Counted from the first letter of the stretch, positions 764 to 51,432 are shown. The stretch: DNA of 64,000 nucleotides from Nitrosopumilus sp. (GCA_965218695.1 OZ244651.1:192001-256000); one strand, 5' to 3'. Made by a program: numbers and translations. Notes: generated from the sequence alone by a model not told the origin.

Positions 764-924
764 ACAATTACCCCGCCCGACTCTGCGAGGTTGGTGAATA
801 CATGATAACCCTACCCACCCACCACATGTGGCGGGCTGACCCCTAATTACGCATGGTCGCAAAGACCTGGTTGTTGAATGGGGCTATCCAAGCTGCTGTG
901 TTACTGGACTCCGAGTCCTGATAG

Positions 925-2040
925 ATGTATGCAGCTACCGGCCTGTCACACAAAAAAAGGGAGGTGAAAGAAATAGAAAAGAGTATTGGAATTGACATAG
1001 GAAAGAGAAAATGTGTAACGTGTATAATGGATCACAAGGGGACAATCCTGGAAAAGTCATCGTACAACAACACGTCCCGGGAGGCATTGGAGTTTGCAGC
1101 ATATCTAAAGGCCACATACGGCCAGTGCAAAGCAGTCTGCGAATCCACCGGAAACCACTGGATTAAGACTGCAGACGCCTTTGAATCCGCCGGAGTCCCG
1201 CTGACGCTTGCCAATCCGTTCAAGGTCAAGGCAATCGCATGGGCCAAAATAAAAAACGACACCATAGACGCAAGAACGCTTGCCAACCTGCTGCGGGCAG
1301 ACCTGGTTCCAGGCTGCCACATAGGTTCGGCCGAATCCAGGGGAATTAAGCAGGTCCTCAGGTACCAGATGACCCTAGTGCAGGACCGGACAAAAGTGAT
1401 CAACTTTGTGCACACGCTGACAGACAAATACGACATAAATCCAAAAAATGCAGGGACCAGCGTCTGGAGACCAAAGGTCCTAAAGTACCTTGAAGGAGCA
1501 GACATGAAGAATTTCAGGGACAGGTTTGTTCTGGACGGCTGCATATCGCAGATACGGTACTACAACGACGAGATAAAAAAGACCGAAGACGAGATCAAGT
1601 GCTACGTCCGAGACGCCCATGCCCCGAAGATACTGCTGAGCATGACGGGAATGAACGTGTTTTCTGCTGCACTGCTGGCAGCAGAGATCGACACCATCGA
1701 AAGGTTTGAGAACCCAAAAAAGCTCGTATCCTGGGCAGGCATGTGCCCGACGCTTCACCAGTCAGGCGACACGCTATACCACGGCAGGATGAAAAAGGAC
1801 TCGAACCGGAAGGTCAACTGGATCATGATCCAGTGTGCGCTTGTGGCAGTGTTCCATGACGCAAGGATGAAGGAACACTACACGCGCCTCCTGAAGAGGC
1901 ACAAGCACCACATCGCCATAACGCACGTCGCAAACAAGATGCTGACGATCATCTGGCACATGCTGACAGAAGGCAACCTGTACGAGGACAGAAACGAGAA
2001 ACTGTACCGCGCCAAGATCAAGGAAGTTATGAAGGCGTAG
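925..2040 (+). CDS. IS110-family DEDD recombinase/transposase (true start possibly GTG at 964)
   Basis: GIDIGK, CESTG and KNDTIDA DEDD motifs; C-terminal SWAGMCPTLHQSG serine motif. Confidence 0.93.
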   Translation: MYAATGLSHKKREVKEIEKSIGIDIGKRKCVTCIMDHKGTILEKSSYNNTSREALEFAAYLKATYGQCKAVCESTGNHWIKTADAFESAGVPLTLANPFKVKAIAWAKIKNDTIDARTLANLLRADLVPGCHIGSAESRGIKQVLRYQMTLVQDRTKVINFVHTLTDKYDINPKNAGTSVWRPKVLKYLEGADMKNFRDRFVLDGCISQIRYYNDEIKKTEDEIKCYVRDAHAPKILLSMTGMNVFSAALLAAEIDTIERFENPKKLVSWAGMCPTLHQSGDTLYHGRMKKDSNRKVNWIMIQCALVAVFHDARMKEHYTRLLKRHKHHIAITHVANKMLTIIWHMLTEGNLYEDRNEKLYRAKIKEVMKA

Positions 2041-2235
2041 ACGCAGAACCGGCAATGTCCGTAGACGATGATGCCTGATCTAGCGGATGCTGTGCACAAA
2101 TTATGGGAACTATGGGATGTTTCTACATGAATGCTGGGGGGCCAGCCCCCCAGACCCCCCGGAAGGGATTATGCGTGTCACACCGCGGGGCAAAAAGCCG
2201 TATTTTCTGCCGGTCGGGCAGGATTCTGCTTGCAG

Positions 2236-3448
2236 GGGTGTGTCCTAGAGGCATATACCCCCGGATGACAAAAGATATGGATCGGCGGATCACGGCATCG
2301 CCTAATGACTACAAAGAAACGCGACCAACGACAGTACGATTTGGTTCAGCAGTACCTGTCGGGCCTCATGCTGAATACCGTGCTGGGAATAATCAAGAAT
2401 CTTGGGGATCCGTACGCCGTCAGGCCCGGCCTGGGCGGCATGACGGCATACCCGCCTGGCGCCATGGCAGCTGTCTGCATCATGCTTGAGGCACAGCGCA
2501 CGACCTACCGTAAGATGGTCGGCATCCTCCGAAACAATAGCGCCATGGCAGCCAAGATGGGCCTAGAGAAAATTCCCTCCAAGAGCACGATAGCACGCGC
2601 CTACGGCCTGATCCCGGAATGGTACCTGGCAGAGGCACACCGGATTGCCATCAGGGAGGTGGAGGCAGGCTCCCTGGCAGCAGACGGTACCGGATACTCG
2701 TACCTGCGGTTTGTCAGGTGGTTTGACGTCAGGACCGACAGTTTTCGTACCAGAAAGGGATGGGTCAAACTGCACGCAATCGTGGATATCCGCACCAGGG
2801 TGATAATCGACTGCATGGTGACTGACAGCGCAGTGGCAGACATAAACGGGCTGTACGCGATGCTCGGCAGGTTAGGCCGGGGCACCGGCGACTTTTGCCT
2901 GGATTCTGCATACCTGGCAAGGCTCATGTGCAACATGATATCTGCGATGGGAATGGTGCCCCGCATCAAGCCAAAATCCAACACCATACGCAACGCCAGG
3001 GGAAGCCAGTCGTGGCGCGAGATGGTAAGCCTGTACATGGATGAACGGGACAGGTTTGACTCGGAATACCACCAGCGCAGCATCATCGAGGCAGTCTTTG
3101 CCGCCCTCAAGAAGATGTACGGGGACAGCACCAGGTGCCGAAAACACGAGAACCGGACAAGGGAGACTGCGATCCGTGTCATGTGCTACAACATCGAGCT
3201 CGTGGCCAGATTGCAGGCAAAAGACGGCAGGCTCACACAGGATCAAATCGCGACACTTGCAGCATAGCTGGCGCGTTTCACCACGCGCTTCCTAGCGGAG
3301 CCTCCGCACCGTGTCTTGGATTTGGGGGATTTTATGGGTTGTGGAGGATCGATGGTGCGGCACTGTTGGCGTCGACGGGTTCTGGCACCAATCATGTCTT
3401 TGGCATTCTGGTACATGAAATGGCATTTTTTATTACTAGGACACACCC
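2236..3448 (+). mobile_element. 1213-bp IS5-like element, copy A
   Basis: TIR GGGTGTGTCCTAG/CTAGGACACACCC; 9-bp TSD TGCTTGCAG/TGCATGCAG (1 mismatch). Confidence 0.92.
2305..3267 (+). CDS. IS5/IS4-type DDE transposase (320 aa)
   Basis: AADGTG, KLH, LDSAY and YHQRSIIEAVF motifs. Confidence 0.92.
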   Translation: MTTKKRDQRQYDLVQQYLSGLMLNTVLGIIKNLGDPYAVRPGLGGMTAYPPGAMAAVCIMLEAQRTTYRKMVGILRNNSAMAAKMGLEKIPSKSTIARAYGLIPEWYLAEAHRIAIREVEAGSLAADGTGYSYLRFVRWFDVRTDSFRTRKGWVKLHAIVDIRTRVIIDCMVTDSAVADINGLYAMLGRLGRGTGDFCLDSAYLARLMCNMISAMGMVPRIKPKSNTIRNARGSQSWREMVSLYMDERDRFDSEYHQRSIIEAVFAALKKMYGDSTRCRKHENRTRETAIRVMCYNIELVARLQAKDGRLTQDQIATLAA

Positions 3449-3612
3449 TGCATGCAGGTAACGCTTAAGAAGTCAAAAAACATACCCAAGGTGACAAGTT
3501 GGACGCAAAACCTGGATAAGTCCGGGGATGGGTTAACATAGATGCGTAATTCTTCTGACCGCCTAGTCTAGTCCGATACGTTCAATGATCCCATGATCGC
3601 CCGCACGCGATA

Positions 3613-4622
3613 ATGATCAAACACAACAGACGGGAAAGATACTGACAGTACTACGAACTTGCAAACGAAGTCGAGGCATCCCACCTGAGGAGGACGCTGA
3701 TTGAAATGATTCTTGAGAACCCCTGCCCGCGCTCCGAAAACGACAACAGGGGCCGTCCTCGGATTCACTCCAAGGACAAGCTGGATTTTGCCTGCCTGCC
3801 TGCCTGCTGATGAGGGCATACAACAACACATTCCGCAGGATCGAGTCAGACCTGCACGACATGCGGACTCCCTGGGACGGCGAACCCGTGCCGGATCACA
3901 CCACGATAGTCAGGCACCTCCAGATCATCCCGCCAGACTGGATGGATTTGGTGCTGGCCGAGACTGCTCGCCGATGCATCGCCGGGGCGTCCGGGGCAAC
4001 CGGACCGCTGGCTGCAGACAGCAGCGGAGTGGAGACTACCCGGTACGAGGACATCGAAAAACCCTGCAAAAGGGAGCGCGATTTCGTCGAGATGCGCCAA
4101 AAGGCCTACTGGAAATACCACGTAACGGCCATCATGGGGCTACAGATCGTGCTGGCCGCGTTTGGCACGCCTGGCAACGTCAACGACGTCACGATGCTGC
4201 CAGTCATGCTGGCAGAGATCAGGCGCCGCGGGTATGACTTTTCGGGGCGCGTCTTTGATGCGGACCGCGGGTATGACGCCGACTACAACTTCAAGGAGCT
4301 GTTCTGGATGGGCATGACGCCCAACATCAAGCAGAGAAAGGACGCCGTCAGCAGGGGCAAGCCAAGCAGGAAGAAGGCAGCCGGGCTGTTTGACTCGCAC
4401 GAGTACAGGACAAGAGCCCTGGTGGAAGGCATATTCGGGGCCGAGGAGAGCCGGCGGCACCAGCTTCACTGCAGGTTCGTGCGCGAAGACAATCGGCGCC
4501 GGTTTGCCAAGGGACGAGCAATCTCATGGAACATCCGGATCCTCAACCGGTTTAAGTGTGCCTGCCGGCTAAATATACCGATACCGTCCTACGGCGGTTC
4601 GGCTCGCACGGAGTGCGCCTGA
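3613..4622 (+). pseudogene. IS5-family transposase with in-frame TGA (3643-3645) and GCCT x4 frameshift (3790-3805)
   Basis: N-terminus aligns by eye with the intact homologue at 44568-45581 (RY*QY vs NYWNS; RGRPRIHS); PVPDHTTI, AADSSG and DADRGYD downstream. Confidence 0.85.
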
Positions 4623-6015
4623 TGATCCAACCCGTCCGTATCTGACCCCGTCCGTGAGAATGCGGCGGGAAATATTCAGATTAGGACATATCGGAATTAT
4701 GCACCAACCTCCGACTGTATGAGTTCACCTGCCCCTTATATCAGTCGACCAACTTCTTCGGCCACGCTCTTGCCATGTGCCCTCCACGTGAGGACGCATG
4801 TAACAAAATCTGCAAGACGCTTCATGGACTTGGGCCCACCCTTGGTCTGCCCGCTTATCTTGCGGAACACCACCAGATAGCGCAGTGCCCTCTCGCCGGC
4901 GTTGTTTGTAGGGTCGACACCTGGATGCTCCAGGAACGCAAACATGCGGTGCAGGTGCCTCTCAAGCTTGTCCAGCACCTTTTGCATGTCGTCATCGTTA
5001 CCACCACCTGCATCGCGATACCGGTCAAGCATGTCCTGCATGGTGCGGTTCATCGCATGCCGCAGATGTGGCGAGTGCGCCTCCTGCGCGGCCAGCAGTT
5101 TTGCCCTCTCAAACACCCACTTGTGGTCCTCGTGGAGCTGCCGCCGCCGCCGGACGCGTTTGGTCTTGGGAGGCACGGCACAGTATTTTTCTGCCAGGTG
5201 TCTTGTCTGCCGGAGGTCGTGCGCCCAGCACGACTGGTGCATGCCGCCCTTGTCAAACCTGTCATACCCGTTGTACCCGTCAGTTATCGCCACCCCGTCA
5301 AATTTGTCCATGGCATCGAGCATGAGCGTGGCCCTGCTCTGGCTGATGTTTATTGCGATATTTTTGCCCGACTGTGCCACGTTTGCGTGCACCCTCTGGC
5401 CGTCGTTTCGCCAGCTGGTCTCGTCAAACCCGGCACAGTCAGAAGCCTCCACTTCCCCGAGGATCCTGCCTGCCTCGTGGCCCGAGGCGTCCCCGACGCG
5501 CGCCATGATGTTGTTGACAGTGGATCCTGCAAGCTCAATGTCCGTTATGGAGCGCACCGCGACCGAGATTCCCTTGAGCGGCACCCGTGCCGCGCGCAGT
5601 TCTGAGACGAGCCCGACCAGTCCCTTGCCGAAGTTGCCCCGCCGCGGCAGGTCGTTTGGGGCATCTTCCCTGCGGCCGCATGAGCCGCATATTGCAGTCT
5701 CCACGCGGTGCCGCGTCTCGCACGCAGTCACCATGATGTCCGTGATGTCCCGCACGCGCGGACTGCCAATCGCCATCCGGCCGCCGCCGCACCCGCATTC
5801 CGGGAGTACCGGCACCTGTCTCCTGCCCGACTTCCTGCGCCCGAACCTGTGGGATACGGTCCTTTCCGGGTCGTGGGAGCGCGACGCCCCCACGTGTCCA
5901 TCTCTTCCCCCGCGCTTGGCTTTGTCTCCCTTTTCCTGTTTTTTTGCCCGCTCCCTCTTCTGGGCCTTCCATTCCAGGGATTCAGATGAGGGCGGCGTGT
6001 TGGGGTTTGTATAGT

Positions 6016-7486
6016 AGATTCTATGCGTAATCGCACTTAATTTTTAATTTTAGACAGCACGCATGAATTATTGTTGGATTTGCGGATTAATTCTGCATCA
6101 AGGCATGCGGTGCCGGAGACATTTTACAAGCATTTGCAGCAATACGTGCGCACCATCCCCGCACCGCGATGTGCACCGGTTCTGTTATCAGAACGGGGCG
6201 CTGCCTGCAGGCGGGACGGCCCCGTTCCAGTCAATGACTGTCTCCCACCTGCCAGGCGGCGGCGGGCCCTTGTCTATCTTGTCCCATAGCAGGTGCAGGT
6301 TTACCAGTCCGGTGGCCACGTTGAATTCGTAGTTGAACCTGCCTATGGTCCCGTCGTACGGGTCTGTCAGGCGCGCGTATCTCTTGAGCCTTCCGATGGA
6401 GTGCTCCACGCGCACCCGGACAGAGTTGACCAGGTGGTTGTGTTCTTTTTGCTTGGCAGTCAGGATCCGGCGGTTTTTTGATCTCTTGTGGGGGATCATG
6501 AGCGTTGAGCCCGGCAGATCCTTGCCGGTTCCCTGGTAGCCCCTGTCTGCCCAGACGCGGATCCTGTCTTTTTCCGGCGTGGAGGCCTCGCGCATGGAAT
6601 CGGCCCACCTGCCAAACGGCATAGGATCCTCCCTGAGCAGCGTAATGTCGCCGGTGGAGCCGACGGAGCTTTTCGAGATCCCGATTATCACCCCGTCGGC
6701 GTTGGTGTAGACTGTGGTGTTGTAGGTAAAGCGCTTCTTCTTGCCCGAGTACATCATGCGCCTGAGGGTCTTTTCTGACGGGCGCCGCACCGGACAGTGC
6801 GTGCCGTCTGCGATGATGTTGCCCCCGTCGGATCCGGGCACGATTTTTTTGAATTCCTCCTTGGTCTTGCACGAGGCCACCTCTTTTGAGACGTTTTTGG
6901 CAGTGGGAAGCACCCCGGCCAGCATCTTGTCCATCACCTTGAGGTACCTGCACACGCTGGTCTGGTCGATTCCGAATATTGCCTGCAGCGTGCCCTGCGT
7001 GGGGTTGTCTTTTTTGTGCATGAGCGACATGAGCAGGGCGTGCCGGAGGCGCAGCCTGCACCTGTTTCCCGGATCAGAGGCCCGGGATTCGTCGTCGCGA
7101 AACAGCGGCATGTCGCCGGATGCGGTGGCGTACGCCAACACCCGCTCCAGAACGTGCCGGAACTCCTCCCTGCTGCACAGGGTCGCAGAGCGCAGGCTGG
7201 ACTCGTCTGATATGACGCCGTCAAAGACCTCGATCCTGTGCAGGTCCGTGCTGTTCCCCGGGTCCCAGCCCTCCTCCCTGTTCTTCCACAGGCGGCGCTC
7301 GATGTCCAGCTCCTTGTCCTTTTGGTCTAATTCCTTGTCTTTCTGTGCCAGAGTCTCGTTTAGTTTTTTAATTTCCTGTTGCATCTTGCGTATGGCTTGA
7401 TCAGACGAATCCTGCATTTGGAATGTAGCGAGATTATGTCTGATCTAAACTTATTGGATTGATGGGTGGGATTACGCATAAAATCT
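6016..7486 (-). mobile_element. IS5/ISL2-like (Harbinger-related) element
   Basis: TIR AGATTCTATGCGTAATC/GATTACGCATAAAATCT; TSD AGT or TAGTA (boundary ambiguous by 1-2 bp). Confidence 0.85.
6188..7417 (-). CDS. DDE_Tnp_4-like transposase with N-terminal coiled coil and HTH
   Basis: IADGTH, YSGKKK, WADRGYQG and RVRVEHSIGRLK motifs. Confidence 0.9.
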   Translation of the reverse strand: MQDSSDQAIRKMQQEIKKLNETLAQKDKELDQKDKELDIERRLWKNREEGWDPGNSTDLHRIEVFDGVISDESSLRSATLCSREEFRHVLERVLAYATASGDMPLFRDDESRASDPGNRCRLRLRHALLMSLMHKKDNPTQGTLQAIFGIDQTSVCRYLKVMDKMLAGVLPTAKNVSKEVASCKTKEEFKKIVPGSDGGNIIADGTHCPVRRPSEKTLRRMMYSGKKKRFTYNTTVYTNADGVIIGISKSSVGSTGDITLLREDPMPFGRWADSMREASTPEKDRIRVWADRGYQGTGKDLPGSTLMIPHKRSKNRRILTAKQKEHNHLVNSVRVRVEHSIGRLKRYARLTDPYDGTIGRFNYEFNVATGLVNLHLLWDKIDKGPPPPGRWETVIDWNGAVPPAGSAPF

Positions 7487-7735
7487 AGTATGTCATGATG
7501 CGCTCGCTGTACCCCAAGGCCCTTTCAAGACGTTCGATCTTGGCAAGCACCTCTTCAATCTTGGACTCGAGCATGGCATTTTTCTTCCTTTCCTCAGCCA
7601 GTTCCCTCTCCAGCTGTTCCCTGTTCATGTGCCGTGGGTTCCCCATGGACAGGGATGTGTATTACCAGCATATGGATCAGTATGATCATTTTTTTGTGAC
7701 AGGAAGGACAGGTGAATTCATACCTCCGACTCTGC

Positions 7736-8948
7736 GGGTGTGTCCTAGAGAGATATACTCTAGGATGACAAAAGATATGGATCGGCAGATCACGGCATCG
7801 CCTAATGACTACAAAGAAACGCGACCAACGACAGTACGATCTGGTTCAGCAGTACATGCCGGGCCTCATGCTGAATACCGTGCTGGGGATAATCAAAGAG
7901 CTTGGGGATCCGTACGCCGTCTGGCCCGGCTTGGGCGGCATGACGGCATACCCGCCTGGCGCCATGGCAGCTGTCTGCATCATGCTTGAGGCACAGCGCA
8001 CGACCTACCGCAAGATGGTCGGCATTCTCCGAAGTAACGGCGTCATGGCAGCCAGGATGGGCCTGGACAGAATTCCCTCCAAGAGCACGATAGCACGCGC
8101 CTACGGCCTGATCCCGGAATGGTATCTGGCAGAGACACACCGGATTGCCATCAGGGAGGTGGGGACAGGCTCCCTGGCAGCAGACAGTACCGGGTACTCG
8201 TACCTGCGGTTTGTCAGGTGGTTTAACGTCCGGACCGACAGTTTTCGTACCAGAAAGGGATGGGTCAAGCTGCACGCAATCGTGGACATACGCACCAGGG
8301 TGATAATCGACTGCATGGCAACTGACAGCGCGGTGGCAGACATAAACGGGCTGTACGCGATGCTCGGCAGGCTCGGCCTAGGCACCGGTGACTTTTGCCT
8401 GGATTCTGCATACCTGGCAAGGCTAATGTGCAACATGATATCTGCGATGGGAATGGTGCCCCGCATCAAGCCAAAATCCAACACCATACGCAACGCCAGG
8501 GGAAGCCAGTCGTGGCGCGAAATGGTAAGCCTGTACATGGATGACAAGGACAGGTTTGACTCGGAATACCACCAGCGCAGCATCATCGAGGCAGTCTTTG
8601 CAGCCCTCAAGAAGATGTACGGGGACAGCACCAGGTGCCGAAAACACGAGAACCGGACAAGGGAGACTGCGATCCGTGTCATGTGCTACAACGTCGAGCT
8701 CGTGGCCAGATTGCAGGCAAAAGACGGCAGGCTCACACAGGATCAAATCGCGACACTTGCAGCGTAACCGGTGCGTCTTGACACGCGCCTCCTAGCGGAG
8801 CCTCCGCACAGTGTCTTGGATTTGGGGGATTTTATGGGTTGTGAAAGATTGACGGTGCGGCACTGTTGGCGTCGACGGGTTCTGGCACCAATCGTGTCTT
8901 TGGCATCTTGGCACATGAAATGGCATTTTTTATTACTAGGACACACCC
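7736..8948 (+). mobile_element. 1213-bp IS5-like element, copy B
   Basis: Same TIRs as copy A; TSD CGACTCTGC (7727-7735; right copy split by IS66). Confidence 0.92.
7805..8767 (+). CDS. IS5/IS4-type DDE transposase (320 aa)
   Basis: Close paralogue of 2305-3267. Confidence 0.92.
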   Translation: MTTKKRDQRQYDLVQQYMPGLMLNTVLGIIKELGDPYAVWPGLGGMTAYPPGAMAAVCIMLEAQRTTYRKMVGILRSNGVMAARMGLDRIPSKSTIARAYGLIPEWYLAETHRIAIREVGTGSLAADSTGYSYLRFVRWFNVRTDSFRTRKGWVKLHAIVDIRTRVIIDCMATDSAVADINGLYAMLGRLGLGTGDFCLDSAYLARLMCNMISAMGMVPRIKPKSNTIRNARGSQSWREMVSLYMDDKDRFDSEYHQRSIIEAVFAALKKMYGDSTRCRKHENRTRETAIRVMCYNVELVARLQAKDGRLTQDQIATLAA

Positions 8949-8953
8949 CGACT

Positions 8954-10492
8954 GTATGAATTCACCTGTCCTTCCTGTCACAAAAAAATGATCATACTGA
9001 TCCATATGCTGGCAATACACATCACTTTACATGGTAAATTCACGGCACATGAGCAGGGACCAGCTAAAAGAGGAACTCCTAGCACGGAACCGGGAGATTG
9101 CCACCCTCAAATCCGATCTTGAGAAGGCACTTGGCAGGATAGAACGTCTTGAAAGGGCCTTGGGGTACAGCGAACGCCTCATGACATACTATACAAACCC
9201 CAACACGCCGCCCTCATCTGAATCCCTGGAATGGAAGGCCCAGAAGAGGGAGCGGGCAAAAAAACAGGAAAAGGAGGGCAAATCCAAGCGCGGGGGAAGA
9301 AAGGGACACGCGGGGGCGTCGCGCCCCCACGACCCGGAAAGGACCGTATCCCACAGGTTCGGGCGCAGGAAGTCGGGCAGGAGGCGGGTGCCGGTGCTCC
9401 CGGAATGCGGGTGCGGCGGCGGCCGGATGGCGATTGGCAGTCCGCGCGTGCGGGACATCACGGACATCAGGGTGACTGCGTGCGAGACGCGGCACCGCGT
9501 GGAGACTGCAGTATGCGGCTCATGCGGCCGCAGGGAAGATGCTCCAAACGACCTGCCGCGGCGGGGCAACTTCGGCAAGGGCATGGTCGGACTCGTCTCA
9601 GAACTGCGCGCGGCACGGGTGCCGCTCAAGGGAATCTCGGTCGCGGTGCGCTCCATAACGGGCATTATGCTTGCAGGATCCACCGTCAACAACATCATGG
9701 CACGCGTCGGGGACGCCTCGGGCCACGAGGCAGGCAGGATCCTCGGGGAAGTGGAGGCTTCTGACTGTGCCGGGTTTGACGAAACCAGCTGGCGAAACGA
9801 CGGCCAGAAGGTACACGCAAACGTGGCACAGTCGGGCAAAAATATCGCAATAAACATCAGCCAGAGCAGGGCCACGCTCATGCTCGATGCCATGGACAAA
9901 TTTGACGGGGTGGCGATAACTGACGGGTACAACGGATATGACAGGTTTGACAAGGGCGGCATGCACCAGTCGTGCTGGGCGCACGACCTCCGGCAGACAA
10001 GGCACCTGGCAGAAAAATACTGCGCCGTGCCTCCCGAGACCAAACGTGTCCGGCGGCGGCAGCAGCAGCTCCACGAGGACCACAAGTGGGTGTTTGAGAG
10101 GGCAAAACTGCTGGCCGCGCAGGAGGCGCGCTCGCCACAGCTGCGGCATACGATGAACCGCACCATGCAGGACGTGCTTGACCGGTACCGCGATGCCGGT
10201 GGTGGTGGTAACGATGACGACATGCAAAAGGTGCTGGACAAGCTCGAGAGGCACCTGCACCGCATGTTTGCGTTCCTGGAGCATCCCGGCGTCGAGCCTA
10301 CAAACAACGCCAGCGAGAGGGCGCTGCGCTACCTGGTGGTGTTCCGCAAGATAAGCGGGCAGACCAAGGGCGGCTCCAAGGCCATGAAGCGCCTTGCAGA
10401 TTTTGTCACGTGCGTCCTCACGTGGAGGGCACATGGCAAGAGCGTGGCCGAAGAAGTTGGTCGACTGATATAAGGGGCAGGTGAATTCATAC
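8954..10492 (+). mobile_element. Single-ORF IS66-like element (intact)
   Basis: TIR GTATGAATTCACCTG; 8-bp TSD CCCCGACT (8946-8953, 10493-10500). Confidence 0.92.
9031..10473 (+). CDS. IS66-family transposase (480 aa)
   Basis: Coiled coil, NPNTPPSS, Zn finger, FDETSW, TDGY, QSCWAH and PTNNASERALR. Confidence 0.93.
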   Translation: MVNSRHMSRDQLKEELLARNREIATLKSDLEKALGRIERLERALGYSERLMTYYTNPNTPPSSESLEWKAQKRERAKKQEKEGKSKRGGRKGHAGASRPHDPERTVSHRFGRRKSGRRRVPVLPECGCGGGRMAIGSPRVRDITDIRVTACETRHRVETAVCGSCGRREDAPNDLPRRGNFGKGMVGLVSELRAARVPLKGISVAVRSITGIMLAGSTVNNIMARVGDASGHEAGRILGEVEASDCAGFDETSWRNDGQKVHANVAQSGKNIAINISQSRATLMLDAMDKFDGVAITDGYNGYDRFDKGGMHQSCWAHDLRQTRHLAEKYCAVPPETKRVRRRQQQLHEDHKWVFERAKLLAAQEARSPQLRHTMNRTMQDVLDRYRDAGGGGNDDDMQKVLDKLERHLHRMFAFLEHPGVEPTNNASERALRYLVVFRKISGQTKGGSKAMKRLADFVTCVLTWRAHGKSVAEEVGRLI

Positions 10493-10504
10493 CCCCGACT
10501 CTGC

Positions 10505-12252: not shown

Positions 12253-13170
12253 ATGGAAGTAACAGGTGATTCTCAAACCATAGAAGAGATCCGGGCAGAG
12301 ATTGATGAACTAAAAAGGAAGGCGATGATTCTGGATTCGTCGTCCACAAGCACTGTTAAGGAATCCTATTCAAAGAAATCCGTACCAAGGCCCACAGCCA
12401 AGAAACCTGCCGCAAAGCCTGCAGCCAAGAAACCTGCCGCAAAGCCTGCAGCCAAGAAACCTGCCGCAAAGCCTGCAGCCAAGAAACCTGCCGCAAAGCC
12501 TGCAGCCAAGAAACCTGCCGCAAAGCCTGCAGCCAAGAAACCTGCCGCAAAGCCTGCAGCCAAGAAACCTGCCGCAAAGCCTGCAGCCAAGAAACCTGCC
12601 GCAAAGCCTGCAGCCAAGAAACCTGCCGCAAAGCCTGCAGCCAAGAAACCTGCCGCAAAGCCTGCAGCCAAGAAGCCTGCAGCCAAGTCCAAACCAAAAA
12701 AATCCACAGCCAAGAAACCCGAGCCCAAAGAATCTGAAAAAACACCAGAGGAGGAGATGGAGGCAAACCTCTCTGATGAGGAGATTGAAAATTTTCGGAT
12801 TGAAAAGGTCGACATGGATAAACTCACAAACAAGGTATGCGTCATTCTGGCAGAACACGAATCAAACGGAATGCTTCAAAACGAACTGTGGAAGAAGCTC
12901 AAACTCTCAAATCGTGATGGTTCGCGTCTGTCATTGAAGCTTGAGAGAATGGGAACCATTACCCGAGAGAAGCTTCTTCAGAAGAACCGCTGGACTTACA
13001 AACTAATCCTAAAAAAGACCCCAGTCAGTACCAAATCGATCGAGAATGCCCCCTGTCTAGTGTGTCCTGTTGAACAAAGATGTACCATAGACGGTGAAAT
13101 CAGCCCTAAAAATTGTCAGCTTATTGAGGACTGGGTAATCAATTCGATGAAGAAGCCGAAGTCCCGATGA
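12253..13170 (+). CDS. RPC34-like / TFE-beta transcription factor (wHTH + FeS-cluster Cys motif) with Lys/Ala/Pro repeat N-terminus
   Basis: C-terminal [23 protein letters not shown] matches the archaeal RPC34/TFE-beta Cys motif; winged-helix-like segment upstream. Confidence 0.78.
12395..12687 (+). repeat. 27-bp coding tandem repeat, 10 perfect units plus a partial unit (AKKPAAKPA)
   Basis: CAGCCAAGAAACCTGCCGCAAAGCCTG repeated at 12395-12664. Confidence 0.95.
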
Positions 13171-21417: not shown

Positions 21418-22364
21418 CTTGTTCAATTGGCTTGGCTTTGAATATAACAGTTGTTTGCGCGTTATGTCAAAGGCAGTGGTCAAGTCCAAACCCATGGAGT
21501 TGTGGGCATGGCTGTGGAGATGTTTATGGATGGAATGGTGCCAGATCATATCATTCTCTTGCCCCCGAACATCCAGAAGATGGTCTGGGATACCGATCTC
21601 TAAGATACCGCCTACCTCATGCTGATAGACATGGGAACAGGAAGGTGCAGATCTGATTGGATGAATACTGCACAGGTCCCAATGGGCTGTGGCGACTTGC
21701 TGTTTTTTACGAGGTTGGTGAATACATGATAACCCTACCCACCCACCACATGTGGCGGGCTGACCCCTAATTACGCATGGTCGCAAAGACCTGGTTGTTG
21801 AATGGGGCTATCCAAGCTGCTGTGTTACTGGACTCCGAGTCATGATAGATGTATGCAGCTACCGGCCTGTCACACAAAAAAAGGGAGGTGAAAGAAATAG
21901 AAAAGAGTATTGGAATTGACATAGGAAAGAGAAAATGTGTAACGTGTATAATGGATCACAAGGGGACAATCCTGGAAAAGTCATCGTACAACAACACGTC
22001 CCGGGAGGCATTGGAGTTTGCAGCATATCTAAAGGCCACATACGGCCAGTGCAAAGCAGTCTGCGAATCCACCGGAAACCACTGGATTAAGACTGCAGAC
22101 GCCTTTGAATCCGCCGGAGTCCCGCTGACGCTTGCCAATCCGTTCAAGGTCAAGGCAATCGCATGGGCCAAAATAAAAAACGACACCATAGACGCAAGAA
22201 CGCTTGCCAACCTGCTGCGGGCAGACCTGGTTCCAGGCTGCCACATAGGTTCGGCCGAATCCAGGGGAATTAAGCAGGTCCTCAGGTACCAGATGACCCT
22301 AGTGCAGGACCGGACAAAAGTGATCAACTTTGTGCACACGCTGACAGACAAATACGACATAAAT

Positions 22365-24015
22365 GTAACTGCATAGTTTTTTGATCAAATGTTGAACTCC
22401 ATGCCTACGCGCGTCTATGCAGTTTTTTGACGTGGAGCCAGGCCCTCGCGCAGGATCGTGCCAAGATCATCTCCCCTTGCCTTGCATGTCTGCTTGATGC
22501 TCATCAGCGTGGCAATGGCATCTGCGCCATCCTTGGATCTGCTCCCGTTGCTGTTCTTGCGCAGGATGACGCACGGCCTGATGGCCCGCTCTGCCCGGTT
22601 GTTGTGGTATTCGACGCCGTCTGTCTCCAGAAACGCAAACAGGTGATCCCTTTCCCGCACCAGCCTCTTGCGCATCCTGTTGCAGTGCTTGCAGTCGCGG
22701 TCCTTTTCGAGCCTGCCGATAAGTGACGCGATACGACGATCCAGCCTCTTCTTTGCGGCAAGCGCGTCTGCCCCTCCCGGAACGGCGCCGTCGATGTGCG
22801 AGTCCCACAGTATCGCGCGCAGCGTCCTTGCGTGACGCTTGTAGTCGTAGCCGGGATTCTTGTATTTCAGGGTGTCCTTGATGTCCCGGGCGTAATGAAG
22901 GTGGCACTTTTGGTGTTCGGATCCGATGACGTTCCACGCGGCCCACGAGTCAGACGTGACGCATCCCGGGTAGTCCTTGCCGAGCATCTTTTTTGGAACC
23001 TTCGAGTTCCTGTGGCGGTGCACCTCGTAGATTACGGCGTACCTGGCTACAGCCACCCACAGCCAGTAGTTCGTGCCGTCGACGCGCCAGATTGTCTCGT
23101 CCCCGTTTATCGCACGCGAGTTTCTTACCTCCTCCTTGATCTTCTCGTACAGCGGCCCGAGCTCCCGGGCCATCCTGCACACCATGCGGTTTATCGCAGA
23201 TTCCGTGATTCTTGCCGAGTACATCATCATGACAATATTGCATATTCTGAGGTCTGACATGCCGTGCAGCCGGAGGATGACCATCATTATCATAAAGTTG
23301 ATCCCGTACCTGGAGTTTGGCAGTGCCAGCGGAGTCCTGCCGGACACGGTCCTCTTGCAGTTCCTGCAACGCCTTCTCTTTAGTCACCTTGATGTGCTTT
23401 AGTTCCGTCTTGGCAGCCTCCCTTACCACCTTTGTGTACGTGGACACGCATTCTGAGAGGTCGGAGCTGCCGCAGTTGTCGCACGTGTGGGGATCTGCCG
23501 TCTCCTCTGCGTCTATTCTTTCAGGACGCGCAAGGCCCGTGCGTTTGTGGTCACTTGGCTTGCCCTTGCCCTTGCCCTTGCCCTTGCCCTTGCCCTTTGC
23601 GCGGCGCCGGGTACTGCCGGTCTTTTTGTCCGGTTTTGCGCCGATGCTCCTTGCAACGGCAGCCGATATGATGCCCTTTGCCTCCTGCAACTCTGCCGTG
23701 AGATCCTGGATCTGTTTGAGGGCGGCAGCGTAAAGATCAGCGAGTTTGGCCATCTGCCGGTCTTTTTCGGCCATCTGCCGGTCTTTTTCGGCCATCTGCT
23801 CTGCCATCACACCCACTTTTTCCTCCAGTTCTGCAATCCTTGACTCGGAATTATCATCAGACATATGCAAACCGTGGGCAACAATGATCTAAAAATTAGG
23901 ACGGAGAGAAAAACTCGATCAAGTGATCAAAAATAGTTTTAAAAAATTAGACAGACGCGGATTTTCTGATTGTAGATATGGAGTTCAACATTTGATCAAA
24001 AAACTACACAGATAC
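22365..24015 (-). mobile_element. Single-ORF IS66-like element with ~38-bp TIRs
   Basis: GTAACTGCATAGTTTTTTGATCAAATGTTGAACTCCAT and its inverse; 8-bp TSD ACATAAAT (22357-22364, 24016-24023). Confidence 0.92.
22415..23870 (-). pseudogene. IS66-family transposase, frameshifted near 23375
   Basis: Coiled coil and first CxxC in one frame; CRNC, GDETIW, QKCHLH and NNRAERAIR in another. Confidence 0.82.
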
Positions 24016-24623
24016 ACATAAATCCAAAAAATGCAGGGACCAGCGTCTGGAGACCAAAGGTCCTAAAGTACCTTGAAGGAGCAGACATGAAGAATTTCAG
24101 GGACAGGTTTGTTCTGGACGGCTGCATATCGCAGATACGGTACTACAACGACGAGATAAAAAAGACCGAAGACGAGATCAAGTGCTACGTCCGAGACGCC
24201 CATGCCCCGAAGATACTGCTGAGCATGACGGGAATGAACGTGTTTTCTGCTGCACTGCTGGCAGCAGAGATCGACACCATCGAAAGGTTTGAGAACCCAA
24301 AAAAGCTCGTATCCTGGGCAGGCATGTGCCCGACGCTTCACCAGTCAGGCGACACGCTATACCACGGCAGGATGAAAAAGGACTCGAACCGGAAGGTCAA
24401 CTGGATCATGATCCAGTGTGCGCTTGTGGCAGTGTTCCATGACGCAAGGATGAAGGAACACTACACGCGCCTCCTGAAGAGGCACAAGCACCACATCGCC
24501 ATAACGCACGTCGCAAACAAGATGCTGACGATCATCTGGCACATGCTGACAGAAGGCAACCTGTACGAGGACAGAAACGAGAAACTGTACCGCGCCAAGA
24601 TCAAGGAAGTTATGAAGGCGTAG

Positions 24624-24903
24624 ACGCAGAACCGGCAATGTCCGTAGACGATGATGCCTGATCTAGCGGATGCTGTGCACAAATTATGGGAATGGCGGGT
24701 GTTTTTACATGAATGCTGGGGGGCCAGCCCCCCAGACCCCCCGAAGGAGGATTATGCATGTCACGCCGCGGGACAAAAGCCGCATTTTTGCGGATCTGGT
24801 AGGATCCTGCATGCAGGTAACGCTTAAGAAGTCAAAAAACATACCCAAGGTGACAAGTTGGACGCAAAACCTGGATAAGTCCGGGGATGGGTTAACATAG
24901 ATG
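24624..24903 (+). ncRNA. Candidate IS110/IS1111 bridge (seek) RNA region, 3' non-coding end
   Basis: ~280-bp non-coding end with blocks conserved in 4 copies, GC hairpins and segments complementary to the insertion target; transcription not shown. Confidence 0.55.
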
Positions 24904-24971
24904 CGTAATTCTTCTGACCGCCTAGTCTAGTCCGATACGTTCAATGATCCCATGATCGCCCGCACGCGATA

Positions 24972-25981
24972 ATGATCAAACACAACAGACGGGAAAGATA
25001 CTGACAGTACTACGAACTTGCAAACGAAGTCGAGGCATCCCACCTGAGGAGGACGCTGATTGAAATGATTCTTGAGAACCCCTGCCCGCGCTCCGAAAAC
25101 GACAACAGGGGCCGTCCTCGGATTCACTCCAAGGACAAGCTGGATTTTGCCTGCCTGCCTGCCTGCTGATGAGGGCATACAACAACACATTCCGCAGGAT
25201 CGAGTCAGACCTGCACGACATGCGGACTCCCTGGGACGGCGAACCCGTGCCGGATCACACCACGATAGTCAGGCACCTCCAGATCATCCCGCCAGACTGG
25301 ATGGATTTGGTGCTGGCCGAGACTGCTCGCCGATGCATCGCCGGGGCGTCCGGGGCAACCGGACCGCTGGCTGCAGACAGCAGCGGAGTGGAGACTACCC
25401 GGTACGAGGACATCGAAAAACCCTGCAAAAGGGAGCGCGATTTCGTCGAGATGCGCCAAAAGGCCTACTGGAAATACCACGTAACGGCCATCATGGGGCT
25501 ACAGATCGTGCTGGCCGCGTTTGGCACGCCTGGCAACGTCAACGACGTCACGATGCTGCCAGTCATGCTGGCAGAGATCAGGCGCCGCGGGTATGACTTT
25601 TCGGGGCGCGTCTTTGATGCGGACCGCGGGTATGACGCCGACTACAACTTCAAGGAGCTGTTCTGGATGGGCATGACGCCCAACATCAAGCAGAGAAAGG
25701 ACGCCGTCAGCAGGGGCAAGCCAAGCAGGAAGAAGGCAGCCGGGCTGTTTGACTCGCACGAGTACAGGACAAGAGCCCTGGTGGAAGGCATATTCGGGGC
25801 CGAGGAGAGCCGGCGGCACCAGCTTCACTGCAGGTTCGTGCGCGAAGACAATCGGCGCCGGTTTGCCAAGGGACGAGCAATCTCATGGAACATCCGGATC
25901 CTCAACCGGTTTAAGTGTGCCTGCCGGCTAAATATACCGATACCGTCCTACGGCGGTTCGGCTCGCACGGAGTGCGCCTGA
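24972..25981 (+). pseudogene. IS5-family transposase with the same TGA and GCCT frameshift as 3613-4622
   Basis: Appears identical to copy 1 by eye, including both lesions. Confidence 0.85.
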
Positions 25982-26200
25982 TGATCCAACCCGTCCGTAT
26001 CTGACCCCGTCCGTGAGAATGCGGCGGGAAATATTCAGATTAGGACATATCGGAATTATGCACCAACCTCGTTTTTCAGTAGATGGAAATGTGTTTTTTC
26101 AGGACAACCTGATCTTGCCGCGTTCCTTATGATCACTAGGCGTTCGCCATTATTAGACTCTGGGTGTTAAAAATGGAGCGCGCGAGTCTTACACGTTCAA

Positions 26201-27346
26201 ATGAAAAACAAGCAATCGCTCCAAATACAGTCCGCCGAATCTGCATATAAGATCATCGGCCCCGTACTGTTTTCCCTGTTGCAGATCAAGTTCTCAGACA
26301 GGTACAACGCCCTATACGGACCGGTCCACTTTTTTGAACGCTTGTTTGGCATGTGCAGGCACACCGAATACGCAGAGACTGCATGGTCCAGCGACCCGGA
26401 CGGCGGGACGGGCATTCCCACGGGCAGGTGGCTGCTTGACAGGATACGCCATATCCGGTACGACTACATGTTAAAGCGGTGCCAGGCAATAACGGATCGC
26501 ACCGTGCGCAGGATGAGGCGGCACGGCATGTTCAGGGAGCCGGTGGACATTGCAATCGACAAACACCTGGTCTGCAGGTACGACAGGTTCCGGAGGATCG
26601 TCAACACCATAAAGTCAAAACCAAAAAAGGGAACGTACAACTTTAACTGCCTGGCGACTGCAAACTGCATCGTGGCAGGCTCCAGGGCGTTTCTGGCAGC
26701 CCGGCTGGTCAGAAGGGGAGATACAGACCTCGAGGTGGTCTCAGGACTGATAGCAGACTGCAGAAGGCAGGGGATAAGGATCAAGTCACTAAAGATAGAC
26801 CGGGAGTTCTTTTCTGTGGACATCATTAACATGCTGGAGCGTGAAGGGATCCCGTTCATGGTGCCTGCAATCAAGACCAAGGGCGTCAAAAAAGCCGTAG
26901 AGGAGTTCAAAGACGGCGGGAAGGCGACGGTGTCGCGGCATTCCATAGATTCGGGACGCGATACTGCCGAGTTTACACTGATAATCCAAAAGAGGAAGAA
27001 CGGCCACTTTACGCTTGCCACCAACGCCACGGTGCCGCAGGTGCTGGGGTTCGAGTCCAGCAACGGCCTGACAGGCGCACACGGATTCGCAGAACAGTAC
27101 CGTCTCCGCTGGGGAGTGGAGACTGCGTACAGCAACTACGAGTCACTCAGGCCCCGCACCACGAGCAGGAACGAGTCGGTGCGCATGCTGCTGCTGTTCT
27201 TCCCGATATTCATTTACAACGCCTGGGCGCTGGTCCGCCACCTGCTCCGGATCTCATTCCACGGCAGGCACATGACGCTCATAAAGATGCTCAGGCTGTT
27301 TCTCAGGTTCATGAAAGAGTTGGGCCTGGCCGAACCACCCACGTGA
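26201..27346 (+). CDS. ISH3/IS4-like DDE transposase
   Basis: IAIDKH, IDREFFS and YRLRWGVETAY. Confidence 0.9.
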   Translation: MKNKQSLQIQSAESAYKIIGPVLFSLLQIKFSDRYNALYGPVHFFERLFGMCRHTEYAETAWSSDPDGGTGIPTGRWLLDRIRHIRYDYMLKRCQAITDRTVRRMRRHGMFREPVDIAIDKHLVCRYDRFRRIVNTIKSKPKKGTYNFNCLATANCIVAGSRAFLAARLVRRGDTDLEVVSGLIADCRRQGIRIKSLKIDREFFSVDIINMLEREGIPFMVPAIKTKGVKKAVEEFKDGGKATVSRHSIDSGRDTAEFTLIIQKRKNGHFTLATNATVPQVLGFESSNGLTGAHGFAEQYRLRWGVETAYSNYESLRPRTTSRNESVRMLLLFFPIFIYNAWALVRHLLRISFHGRHMTLIKMLRLFLRFMKELGLAEPPT

Positions 27347-27542
27347 ATTGTGTTTCTTGACGCATTCGTATGCAAGTGCCGGCCGCAAGGCTGCGCGGAC
27401 ATGCAGCAACCGGTGCCGGGGTGCCAACGGAATGTGCGCAGGACAGTCAACTGGGATTATCTTTCGGATTTGTGGGCAGCTGGTTGTTAATCATGGGTTT
27501 GATAAAGGGGGTGTCAGGCATGTGCAATTAGACACATTTCCA

Positions 27543-29792: not shown

Positions 29793-30914
29793 ATGGTAGA
29801 TGATATCAGACTCAATAGTTTGGAGGGCGTTGGCCCCGTAACTACAAGAAAGCTATCTGACGCAGGTATTCACAACGTTATGGATCTCATAGTAAGGGGT
29901 CCTGTGGAAATATCTGAGATAACCGGTATGGAGAGGGAGACTGCAGACAAGATTGTCAACAAGGCCAGACAGCATATGGTTGAAGGCGGAATGATTGCCA
30001 AGGATTTTGTTAGTGCAAGCGAGATCTACAAACACAGACAGAGCATCGGCAAGATTACAACCGGCACAAACTGCCTTGATACGTTGTTTGACGGCGGAGT
30101 TGAGACCCAGGCTCTGACAGAAGTCTATGGAGAGTTCGGATGCGGCAAGACACAATTTGCCCATACCATGTCTGTCATGGTTCAAAAAACCAAGGCGGAA
30201 GGCGGACTTGAGGGCGGTGTCTTGTATATTGACACTGAAAACACCTTCAGGCCCGAAAGAATCGTCTCGATTGCCCAGGCACATGAGATGGATCCAGAAA
30301 AGGTTCTAGACAACATCATCGTTGCACGTGCCTACAACAGCGCACACCAGACACTGATTCTAGAAGAGGCAGGTCAGGTAATTGAAGAGAACAACATCCG
30401 ACTGATCGTCGCAGATTCTGCAGTGGGGCTTTTCCGTTCCGAATATCTTGGAAGGGGAACGTTGTCCAACAGGCAACAAAAACTAAATCATTTTGTGCAC
30501 CTGTTGTCCCGAATTGCAGAGACATACAACTGTGCTGCAATTGCAACCAACCAGGTCATGGCATCCCCTGACGTCTTTTTTGGAGATCCAACACGTCCGA
30601 TTGGCGGAAACGTCGTTGCGCACACAAGCACCTACCGGATATACTTCAAGAAATCCGGCAAGAAGCGAATCGCCAGAATGGTCGACAGTCCTCACCACCC
30701 AGAGGAGGAGACAATATTTGCCCTAGGTGAGGCAGGCGTCGTGGATCTCGAAGAGACTGTCAAGAAGACCAAAAAGAGTACCAAAAAAGAGACTTCCAAA
30801 AAGTCCAATACTACGACATCCGATGAAACCGAATCCGAAAATGCTACTGCTGCTGCTGTGAGTGCAGAACCTGCAGCAGATCTCAGTGACGATGATCCTG
30901 AACCCATAGAGTAA
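29793..30914 (+). CDS. radA: DNA repair and recombination protein RadA
   Basis: N-terminal HhH, GEFGCGKTQ Walker A, YIDTENTFRPER and GGNVVAH. Confidence 0.96.
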   Translation: MVDDIRLNSLEGVGPVTTRKLSDAGIHNVMDLIVRGPVEISEITGMERETADKIVNKARQHMVEGGMIAKDFVSASEIYKHRQSIGKITTGTNCLDTLFDGGVETQALTEVYGEFGCGKTQFAHTMSVMVQKTKAEGGLEGGVLYIDTENTFRPERIVSIAQAHEMDPEKVLDNIIVARAYNSAHQTLILEEAGQVIEENNIRLIVADSAVGLFRSEYLGRGTLSNRQQKLNHFVHLLSRIAETYNCAAIATNQVMASPDVFFGDPTRPIGGNVVAHTSTYRIYFKKSGKKRIARMVDSPHHPEEETIFALGEAGVVDLEETVKKTKKSTKKETSKKSNTTTSDETESENATAAAVSAEPAADLSDDDPEPIE

Positions 30915-44300: not shown

Positions 44301-44475
44301 GGCACACTACATTTAACGCTATCCTGTCCCCTGGCATGTCAGATCCGCTGTCCGTGCCATCTCAGAGCCATGGCATTTGAGAATAAACGGGCGTACAACC
44401 ATGCAGTACATGGTGAATCTGGTCGTCGGCGCCAGATGGCCAATCCCGTACCTGCCGCCACGATGCAGGGGGGGG

Positions 44476-46980: not shown

Positions 46981-47034
46981 TTGTACATGTATGATGCATC
47001 CTTCTATTATATTATCCTTGGTAATAGCCTGTTG

Positions 47035-48550: not shown

Positions 48551-48635
48551 CATAATTACGCCTAGCTGCAGTGAGTGATGTTGACTGTGTTCTAGACCGA
48601 AAAAGCTAAAGATCAGTGGATCCTAGAGTGTCGGA

Positions 48636-49610: not shown

Positions 49611-49661
49611 AGTCGGATAGGCGAATCCGGTACAAGTCTTGGGTGACTGAGTTGAATTATG

Positions 49662-51187: not shown

Positions 51188-51432
51188 CAACAGGCTACTT
51201 GGTAACGGACGTGCAGTACGGACTCGCCCAATACATTTCTAGGGACGAATTTGCATGAATCATGCCTGTGTTTATAAGGGATCCGAGTGCGTACGGCGTG
51301 CATGCTCGCCGCCTCCAAAATCAGGCGTGTCCATTTGCATGATTCATGTCCATGCAGATCCCGTAGGCCGGATTTTGCAAATGTGGAGAACGCCCGGGCA
51401 TATCAACAGATTTATCTCATGACTGCATACGG

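Follow-up and report, generated by a model that had tools for sequence, protein, structure and literature searches.

The window analyzed here, a stretch of 64,000 nucleotides (G000:C1:192001-256000 within a 2.63-Mb archaeal genome, 52.8% G+C), is dense in insertion sequences (IS) of the IS5, IS66, ISH3 and IS110 families. Two of the IS5 elements, referred to as hosts A and B, are interrupted within their terminal inverted repeats by IS110-family elements with DEDD transposases, named c1 to c4. The left end of these IS110 elements contains a predicted RNA of the bridge/seek type, the loops of which match the insertion target and the ends of the element. We conclude that this RNA very probably guides the insertion of IS110, and that two separately programmed sub-lineages serve hosts A and B. 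The interrupted hosts are composed of the following parts:

787-796, plus strand: GAGGTTGGTG, the outer 10 bp of the left repeat in host A copy 1, ending in the core TG
797-3544, plus strand: IS110 copy c1, 1535 bp after removal of the nested IS at 2236-3448; second core TG at 3543-3544
2236-3448, plus strand: nested 1213-bp IS5-type element in c1, with a 320-aa transposase and more than 30 copies in the genome
3545-4711, plus strand: rest of host A copy 1, with CGTAATT (left repeat, inner 7 bp), a transposase with a broken frame and an empty right repeat
21711-26070, plus strand: second host A::IS110 composite (c2), with IS110 at 21721-24903 and the host remainder at 24904-26070
47025-47034, plus strand: TAGCCTGTTG, which forms the outer half of host B's left repeat and follows the 8-bp target duplication CTTGGTAA
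47035-48550, plus strand: IS110 copy c3 (sub-lineage B1), with guides GATTATGCA and TTCTTGTTG and the RNA at about 47065-47189
48551-49661, plus strand: portion of host B (IS5 family) that lies between the two split repeats; its transposase occupies 48636-49610
49662-51187, minus strand: IS110 copy c4, 97.9% identical to c3 and placed in inverted orientation within host B's right repeat
51188-51197, minus strand: outer half of host B's right repeat (plus-strand sequence CAACAGGCTA), with the second CTTGGTAA after it

Structure of the interrupted hosts

Host A is assigned to the IS5 family by a match to PF01609 and by its 17-bp repeats. The initial annotation had described its left repeat as split between GAGGTTGGTG and CGTAATT at 787-796/3545-3551 and 21711-21720/24904-24910, and all of these coordinates hold. 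An intact third copy of host A is located at G000:C1:879138-880314. Its left repeat reads GAGGTTGGTGCGTAATT and contains the empty left target GAGGTTGG-TG-CGTAATT, and the copy is flanked by a 9-bp target duplication, GTATTTCTG. The start of the 9-bp duplication is also present at copies 1 and 2, where the right duplicate is broken after 5 bases by another IS. The right repeats of copies 1 and 2, AATTATGCACCAACCTC at 4695-4711 and 26054-26070 (TGCATAATT type), are intact and empty, and occupancy is incomplete, as had been reported. The reading frame of the host A transposase is broken at a CTGC tetranucleotide run (3790-3809, 25149-25168 and in copy 3) into open reading frames (ORFs) of 174 and 270 aa, the latter of which scores below the cut-off of the NCBIfam IS5 models (49.3 vs 140). 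A host A copy in contig 9, 79.6% identical, has an intact ORF of 333 aa, and both of its repeats are empty.

The IS110 copies c1 and c2 measure 2748 and 3183 bp, respectively, only because each holds a further nested IS; that of c2 is an IS66-type element at about 22365-24007. Hosts included, c1 and c2 differ by one single-nucleotide polymorphism and one clustered tract (IS positions 1324-1449) over about 2.7 kb, and the host parts of the two composites are 100% identical over 1169 bp. Being near-identical, c1 and c2 need not represent two independent insertions, and this similarity indicates that they may descend from a single one. The c1 tract at 1324-1449, 125 bp located beside the nested IS, is of the type found in copies c7 and c8 elsewhere in the genome, which suggests gene conversion.

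The repeats of host B rebuild to TAGCCTGTTG|CATAATT on both sides, and the whole block is flanked by the direct repeat CTTGGTAA. The host B transposase matches NF033579 with 200.3 bits (cut-off 140), which together with the 8-bp duplication places host B in the IS5 family. Two more IS110 copies, c5 and c6, occupy other, diverged host-B-type copies and are about 95% identical to c3. The transposases of hosts A and B share 26% identity over 172 residues, in agreement with the earlier view of the two hosts as clearly different. The rebuilt repeats also bear out that TGCRTAATT is common to both hosts at repeat positions 9-17 and is split at the same offset. Since TG occupies repeat positions 9-10 in both hosts, the cut falls after position 10 of the 17-bp repeat. 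The invading elements had been taken for the same IS110 family in both hosts. They do form one family, but belong to separate sub-lineages with 83% DNA and 77% protein identity.

BLAST and end searches of the whole genome identified nine complete or nearly complete IS110 copies and about ten fragments. TG is present at both junctions in 9/9 complete copies, and empty target sites (host A copy 3, a contig of run X6, and target C, described below) hold a single TG. The insertion thus involves a short TG core repeated at both junctions, without an ordinary target duplication. TG at both ends leaves the junction ambiguous by two bases, and we regard it as the core. In IS621, the core is CT. The sub-terminal inverted repeats of IS110, ATGATAACCC (802-811 in c1) and GGGTTAACAT (near 3530-3539), are 10 bp long, complementary at 9/10 positions, and located 6-15 bp from the left end and 4-13 bp from the right end. 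They leave terminal extensions of 7 bp on the left (TGAATAC) and 3 bp on the right (AGA), provided that TG is counted with the left end.

The IS110 transposases contain both PF01548 and PF02371 (925-2040, 47087-48277 and 49942-51135) and match the model of the IS110 family RNA-guided transposase, NF033542, with 219.7 (c1) and 231.8 bits (cut-off 140). The protein encoded at 47087-48277 aligns to the IS621 transposase (8wt6) with an E-value of 3.2e-12, including the IGID, ESTG, DTIDAR and SG motifs; the aligned stretches IGIDigK, cEStGnh, nDTiDAR and hqSGdt are at matching places. The C-terminal motif of the transposase reads GMcPtlhqSG, compared to GL-P----S(t)G of the IS1111 group. The four aligned stretches probably carry the catalytic D-E-D-D residues and the SG motif, as in IS621.

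Predicted guide RNA in the left end of IS110

A guide RNA of about 125 nt is predicted at IS positions 31-155, upstream of the transposase gene. In c1, it comprises the following parts, and the transposase ORF overlaps its 3' portion:

827-951, plus strand: predicted bridge/seek RNA, consisting of a closing stem plus two stem-loops that both contain a large internal loop
845-853, plus strand: AATTACGCA, forming the target loop's 5' strand and reverse-complementary to TGCGTAATT (core and inner repeat half)
868-876, plus strand: TGGTTGTTG, forming the target loop's 3' strand and matching the outer half and core, AGGTTGGTG, in sense orientation at 7/9 positions
897-905, plus strand: 5' strand of the donor loop, TGTGTTACT, in which UGUGUU pairs with AATACA of the left end, with one G-T wobble
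919-930, plus strand: 3' strand of the donor loop, TGATAGATGTAT, containing ATAGATG, the right end and core
925-2040, plus strand: DEDD transposase in the ORF listing, with Pfam domains PF01548 and PF02371

Because the ATG at 925 is inside the donor loop, the true start of the c1 transposase is probably the in-frame GTG at 964.

Two single-sequence folds of the RNA have the same architecture (z -2.1 and -2.6), and the consensus fold of eight sequences contains 34 pairs. Evaluated on 20 distinct sequences, 94.5% of the cells pair, and 12/31 pairs have changed on both sides in a compensatory manner. None of 500 shuffles is as good (0/500), and slid controls are 35-47% paired. A 12-bp closing stem encloses both stem-loops, the first of which has its loop between the CCCC/GGGG and GGUC/GACC stems.

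The alignment of 14 left ends is near-invariant save for two short blocks, which track the sequences flanking the insertions and fold onto opposite strands of one internal loop, the target loop. Block 1 is positioned between CCCCU and UGG and reads AAUUACGCA in sub-lineage A, GAUUAUGCA in B1, AAUUAUGCA in B2, AAAUUCACC in C and AUCAGAUCA in D. In each, it is the reverse complement of TG and the right flank; AAUUACGCA, AAUUAUGCA and GAUUAUGCA are reverse complements of TGCGTAATT, TGCATAATT and TGCATAATC, respectively. For hosts A and B, the 5' strand can be written as AAUUAYGCA, the reverse complement of TG and the inner repeat half (TGCRTAATT). Block 2, between GRCCU and AAUGGGG, reads GGUUGUUG in A, UCUUGUUG in B1, UCCUGUUG in B2, AGUUGUUG in C, GUUUAGUG in D and GGUUCGUG in E, and is in each the sense of the left flank and TG. 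The guide to the outer half follows the host: GGUUGUUG is found with GGTTGGTG of host A, and UCCUGUUG and UCUUGUUG with GCCTGTTG of host B. The R position of the motif is tracked as well: for host A, target and guide both have CG, and for host B, CA of the target corresponds to UG of the guide.

The donor loop corresponds to the ends of the element itself. Its 3' strand is GAUAGAUG where the right end reads AGA-TG (nine complete copies of this genome and relatives L041 and L043), and GAUAGGUG in L033, L046 and L050, the three elements with a located right end reading AGG-TG. The 5' strand follows the first six bases of the left end, so that AATGCA is found with UGCGUU, and AAAGCA with GCUUU.

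The gene of IS110 proper is preceded by about 165 nt and followed by about 290 nt of non-coding sequence. The right-end non-coding region (2041-2235 and 3449-3544 in c1; 48278-48548 in c3) is conserved across the sub-lineages and includes a G+C-rich hairpin, GCTGGGGGGCCAGCCCCCCAG, and an ATTATGCR block. We considered the block GGATTATGCRTGTCAC (near 2168-2183) as a second guide and rejected it: it is the same in 9/9 aligned copies, including those at unrelated targets.

Target classes and relatives in other genomes

The IS110 copies of this genome fall into classes according to their targets:

Class A: GAGGTTGG-TG-CGTAATT, copies c1 and c2
Class B: TAGCC[T/C]GT-TG-CATAATT, copies c3, c4, c5 and c6
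Class C: GGTGTTGT-TG-GTGAACTTTT, copies c7 and c8 and fragment c12
Class D: CATTTTTGG-TG-ATCTGGC, copy c9
Class E: AAAGTTCG-TG-…, copies c10 and c11
Class F: GCATCA-TG-CGGTCCT, a diverged copy at 448255

Sub-lineages C, D, E and F have other guides and insertion sites without TGCRTAATT. Target C is not a terminal repeat, but is positioned about 685 bp inside a repeated IS5-type element of about 1.53 kb, as seen in uninterrupted copies. There are four such copies (at 1020813, 2369371, 1638632 and 1806010), and the empty target reads …GTTAT-TG-GTGAATTT. The insertions of sub-lineage C are located at G000:C1:2047998-2050748, 392095-394879 and 630374, and the flank of c7 is 72% identical to the transposase gene at 6188-7417 of the window, which belongs to an IS5-type family. 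Elsewhere in the genome, a pair of IS110 right-end fragments, each about 95 nt long, is oriented head to head at a distance of about 70 bp (G000:C1:2266391-2266648), and each is followed by TG-TGGATCT.

A covariance model built from the left-end alignment was searched against 100 related genomes, 60 of them of the same genus. The RNA was detected in 13/100 genomes: 10/60 of the same genus and three in other families of the order. Relatives of the IS110 transposase were found in metagenome-assembled genomes labelled Nitrosopumilus. In 27 guide/left-flank pairs, the cognate guide matches its flank on average at 4.33 of 7 non-core positions, compared to 2.22 for non-cognate pairs. The observed sum was reached in 0/100,000 permutations of the 23 distinct left flanks, and likewise in 0/100,000 permutations of the 16 left flanks from other genomes alone. 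The right ends of most relatives were not located and could be placed only for L041, L043, L046 and L050 from other genomes and L033 from this genome, which limits the right-flank test to five target classes, where 1/120 exhaustive permutations reaches the observed sum.

Individual relatives illustrate the same correspondence. In another genome, L016/L041, which has a 95%-identical transposase, is inserted in the right repeat of a host-A-type IS; the repeat reads TGCGTAATT, and the guides read GAUUACGCA and CGUUGGUG. The relative L056 (G018:C1:614286) has exactly the left guide of c1, GGUUGUUG, and sits in GAGGTTGT-TG of a GAGGTTGTTG end, the perfect target of the c1 3' guide. L061 (G002:C1:1201923) has the left guide UCGUGCUG and sits in a TAGCGTGTTG end, a variant that is empty in this genome. 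Insertions at the same offset have occurred independently in both repeats of one host B (c3 and c4), in other host B copies (c5 and c6), and in the right repeat of the host-A-type element elsewhere. Given these independent events in host B copies and other genomes, insertion at the identical offset is recurrent and programmed, irrespective of how c1 and c2 arose.

Occupancy of the motif sites

Exact matches to TGCRTAATT were counted genome-wide, with the guide copies of IS110 itself excluded. All six terminal-repeat IS110 insertions of the genome are at TGCRTAATT; only 6/49 exact sites are occupied, and the motif alone is a poor predictor of occupancy. The relaxed motif TGCRTAAT[TC] has 149 sites, which comprise six occupied junctions, seven in the IS110 left end (antisense of the guide) and 136 others, among them dozens of IS ends that belong to one large family and read …TAGAAGCCA-TG-CGTAATC…. 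Repeats with a deviant core had been listed as empty, and this proved correct for GGGGTTGTCGCATAAAT at 31198 and 44476, with a third copy at 45624 on the minus strand, and for AGATTCTATGCGTAATC at 6016.

The outer half of the repeat discriminates between occupied and empty sites of host B. All occupied host-B-type ends (4/4) read AGCC[T/C]GT and form five contiguous pairs beyond the core with the B-type guide, one wobble counted. Six empty host-B-type ends (610306, 1128412, 1129526, 1440905, 1877365 and 1878479) read AGCGTGT and form three pairs; the empty copies of the second host thus differ from the occupied ones by one base of the outer half. An uninterrupted host-B-type TAGCCTGTTGCATAATT is present in a contig of X6, an unrelated sequencing run. 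Among the 43 empty sites, one (375412) reaches five contiguous pairs. In host A, the three empty right repeats carry CATAATT, a mismatch to the C of the CG in the A-type guide. Since the host-B-type copies are related by descent, the contrast in their occupancy is suggestive and does not constitute a test.

Proposed mechanism and alternative explanations

The junction anatomy, the conserved fold with compensatory changes, and the covariation of the guides with both targets and donor ends are observed features of these elements. We propose that they belong to one lineage of IS110-family RNA-guided IS, each encoding a bridge/seek RNA of about 125 nt in its left end. The target loop would read the target on both strands around the TG core, and the donor loop would likewise read the joined ends of the element, …ATAGA-TG-AATACA…, in a circle junction …CATAGA-TG-AATACATG…. 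Recombination of the circular element with the target would then place the insertion at one exact base and in one orientation, with TG on each side. The guides of the two sub-lineages would have diverged to fit the repeat of each host and represent two programmes, not one. The initial annotation proposed that the guide recognizes an inner motif conserved across IS5 lineages. This is retained for the 5' strand of the target loop, which pairs with the motif; the second strand, however, reads the outer half in two different programmes. Both sub-lineages have the inner-motif guide in common, with a difference of one or two bases, since TGCRTAATT is present in the repeats of both hosts.

Several observations weigh against this mechanism. 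The sites at 879146 and C9:27621 carry the exact target of c1 and c2, yet are empty, and the empty site at 375412 (TAGCCTGT-TG-CGTAATT) fits the B2 guide as well as the c6 site does, with one U-G wobble. A few related copies underlie the contrast at host B. Beside the core, the A-type 3' guide does not match its own target (U vs G), and the right-flank guide of c7 is shifted by one base, matching at 2/7 positions in the fixed register and 8/9 in the shifted one. The low-scoring relatives L018, L034, L051 and L068 match the left flank at 2-3/7 positions, and in the register used, L046 and L050 are a poor fit to the right flanks predicted for them. An Rfam scan of 46900-51400 with E-values up to 1 detected no bridge-RNA family and a single unrelated match (sR32, E 0.7). 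Among the contigs of four sequencing runs, none joined across IS110, and neither a circle junction nor an excision product was seen; these contigs were informative only through loose ends that carry uninterrupted repeats of the host B type. That the RNA is produced and bound by the transposase, and that the reaction follows the chemistry outlined, would hold by analogy with IS621, ISEc11 and their relatives.

A simpler explanation would be a single guide, common to all IS110 copies, that reads only TGCRTAATT and to which the outer half is irrelevant. It would account for the restriction of the six terminal-repeat insertions to the motif, the complementarity of the 5' strand of the target loop, and the emptiness of repeats without TG at positions 9-10 (GGGGTTGTCGCATAAAT). 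With recognition of the motif only, however, any IS5-type repeat containing it would be a target, and 43/49 exact sites are empty, about 20 of them at ends of repeated elements: six AGCGTGT ends, nine CGG[CT][TC]GT ends, three right ends of host A and three host-A-type left ends. Dozens more IS ends with TGCGTAATC are empty. Moreover, differences in the outer half are mirrored in the second loop strand, and the R position is tracked by the guide, which makes a single guide very unlikely. Recognition by protein, in which either the IS110 transposase or an IS5 transposase bound to the repeat directs the insertion and the complementarity of the left end is incidental, appears extremely improbable. 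Before 2024, IS1111-type elements were reported to target inverted repeats by a mechanism then unknown, but no result presented here favors this explanation. Transposases that are 77-95% identical have wholly different targets, which match the loop strands, the donor loop tracks the ends of its own element, and members of the family are experimentally RNA-guided (PMC11208160 and PMC11187229).

It is quite possible, though rather doubtful, that the pattern was mainly made by copying of occupied hosts through composite transposition or gene conversion, rather than by repeated targeting. The near-identity of the two composites of host A fits copying, as does the absence of A-type IS110 outside the host A copies in this genome, and the 125-bp c7/c8-type tract of c1 indicates that gene conversion occurs. 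In contrast, c3 and c4 are inverted relative to each other in the two ends of one host and share only 17 bp of target, c5 and c6 are 5% diverged from c3 and c4 and located in diverged hosts, and a host-A-type element was hit in its right repeat in another genome. Furthermore, a composite would have to move with 10/17 bases of its left repeat. Guidance by the left-end RNA, with separate programmes for hosts A and B, is the explanation that we prefer.

We speculate that the IS110 lineage is an RNA-guided parasite of other IS, engaged in an arms race with its victims, although we rate this scenario as rather unlikely. If it were true, each sub-lineage would cut the repeat or the transposase gene of one IS5-type family, disabling the victim while landing harmlessly. 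Victims with changed repeats (AGCGTGT for AGCCTGT) would escape and multiply, and guides would re-adapt, as in the G002 relative with UCGUGCUG/TAGCGTGTTG. The guide loops and the IS5 repeats of these archaea would then form a readable record of natural guide reprogramming.

Nested and neighboring elements

The 1213-bp IS5-type element nested in c1 is inserted in the right end of IS110, within the palindrome CTGCATGCAG. The same element is present in c7 (G000:C1:2048094-2049306) at the same base of the palindrome, and the two IS110 copies, c1 and c7, are only 89% identical. Site-specific insertion was considered for this element and rejected, since the adjoining tract of c1 is of the c7/c8 type and gene conversion is the simpler reading. 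The type of this tract indicates that the nested element probably passed between IS110 copies through gene conversion and not by two targeted insertions.

Other elements begin about 5 bp past the right repeats of host A (4712-4717 and 26071-26076), within the 9-bp target duplication: an IS66-type element from 4717 and an ISH3-type element at 26076-27542. An inverted pair of IS66-type elements (4717-6016 and 9187-10492), 95.6% identical, is bracketed by CTCCGACT and CCCCGACT. The block at about 4709-10500 behaves as a single inserted unit, the removal of which restores the 9-bp duplication of host A copy 1, CGACTCTGC. About 14 consecutive G residues (44465-44480) stand immediately before GGGGTTGTCGCATAAAT, the repeat that belongs to the IS5-type element at 44476-45624. 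A 27-bp tandem array of about 11 copies, 93-98% identical, is located at 12386-12687 inside the ORF at 12253-13170. The window also carries a RadA/Rad51 gene at 29793-30914.

Significance

At least six guide programmes of one IS110 lineage are present in a single archaeal genome, most of them aimed at other insertion sequences, and occupied and empty sites that differ by one base stand side by side. The nesting of IS within IS in ammonia-oxidising archaea is thus partly programmed, not a random pile-up. Full-text searches found no literature on IS110 in ammonia-oxidising archaea or within IS5 repeats, and the supplementary catalogues of PMC11208160 and PMC11187229 may include relatives. The locus supplies pairs of sites for testing the mismatch tolerance of a TG-core recombinase, such as TAGCCTGT-TG-CATAATT and TAGCGTGT-TG-CATAATT. 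The combination of IS1111-type ends and guide order with an upstream RNA bears on how the RNA shifted between the element's ends in the evolution of the family.

Comparison with known systems

The bridge/seek RNA mechanism, described in 2024, and the landing of such elements in the end-repeats of other transposons are already known, and the elements described here are a natural example of both. IS4321 and IS5075 reportedly target the terminal repeats of the Tn21 family, as Partridge and Hall are said to have described in 2003, and IS1383 is said to target the inverted repeats of IS1384, reportedly after Müller and colleagues in 2001. These are reportedly DEDD elements that, like those of hosts A and B, have a fixed position and orientation inside the terminal repeat of another element, their own sub-terminal repeats, and no ordinary target duplication. 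Unlike them, the elements described here have an archaeal host, victims from the IS5 family and the RNA upstream of the gene, and sister sub-lineages were reprogrammed within one genome, including towards an internal site of a third IS5-type element.

Both Pfam domains, the NF033542 match, the TG junctions, and the covarying target and donor loops place the elements in the IS110 family. Within it, they share the sub-terminal repeats, the 7/3-bp extensions and the order of the guide strands with the IS1111 group, in which the guide RNA and the longer non-coding region are expected downstream of the transposase gene; here the RNA is upstream. The 10-bp repeats and the reversed strand order separate them from the narrow, IS621-like IS110 group. 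The sub-terminal repeats of IS1111 elements are given as 7-17 bp (PMC11208160) and usually 11-13 bp (PMC11187229), Siddiquee et al. (2024, PMC11187229) describe terminal extensions of 7 bp (left) and 3 bp (right), and the top-strand segment of the RNA is placed 5' of the bottom-strand segment (PMC11187229). PMC11187229 also mentions a few IS1111-type exceptions with an upstream RNA, such as ISMtsp17, and the diverged ISHvo10 and ISAcp5, with long non-coding regions on both sides, to which the about 165 nt upstream and 290 nt downstream found here are similar. Compared with the IS1111-family seekRNA elements ISEc11, ISKpn4 and ISPa11, as presented there, our elements have the same sub-terminal repeats, extensions, strand order and natural reprogramming, but differ in having the RNA gene upstream of the transposase gene, and the target and donor loops in one RNA enclosed by a closing stem.

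The similarity to the bridge RNA of IS621 (Durrant et al. 2024, PMC11208160; structure 8wt6) includes the left-end RNA upstream of the recombinase gene and the two loops, target and donor, each of which reads one flank per strand and the 2-nt core. The transposase aligns to that of IS621 (8wt6) over the catalytic motifs. In contrast to IS621, the strand order is reversed in each loop, the core is TG, the sub-terminal repeats are long, and the right end contains the additional conserved region of about 290 nt.

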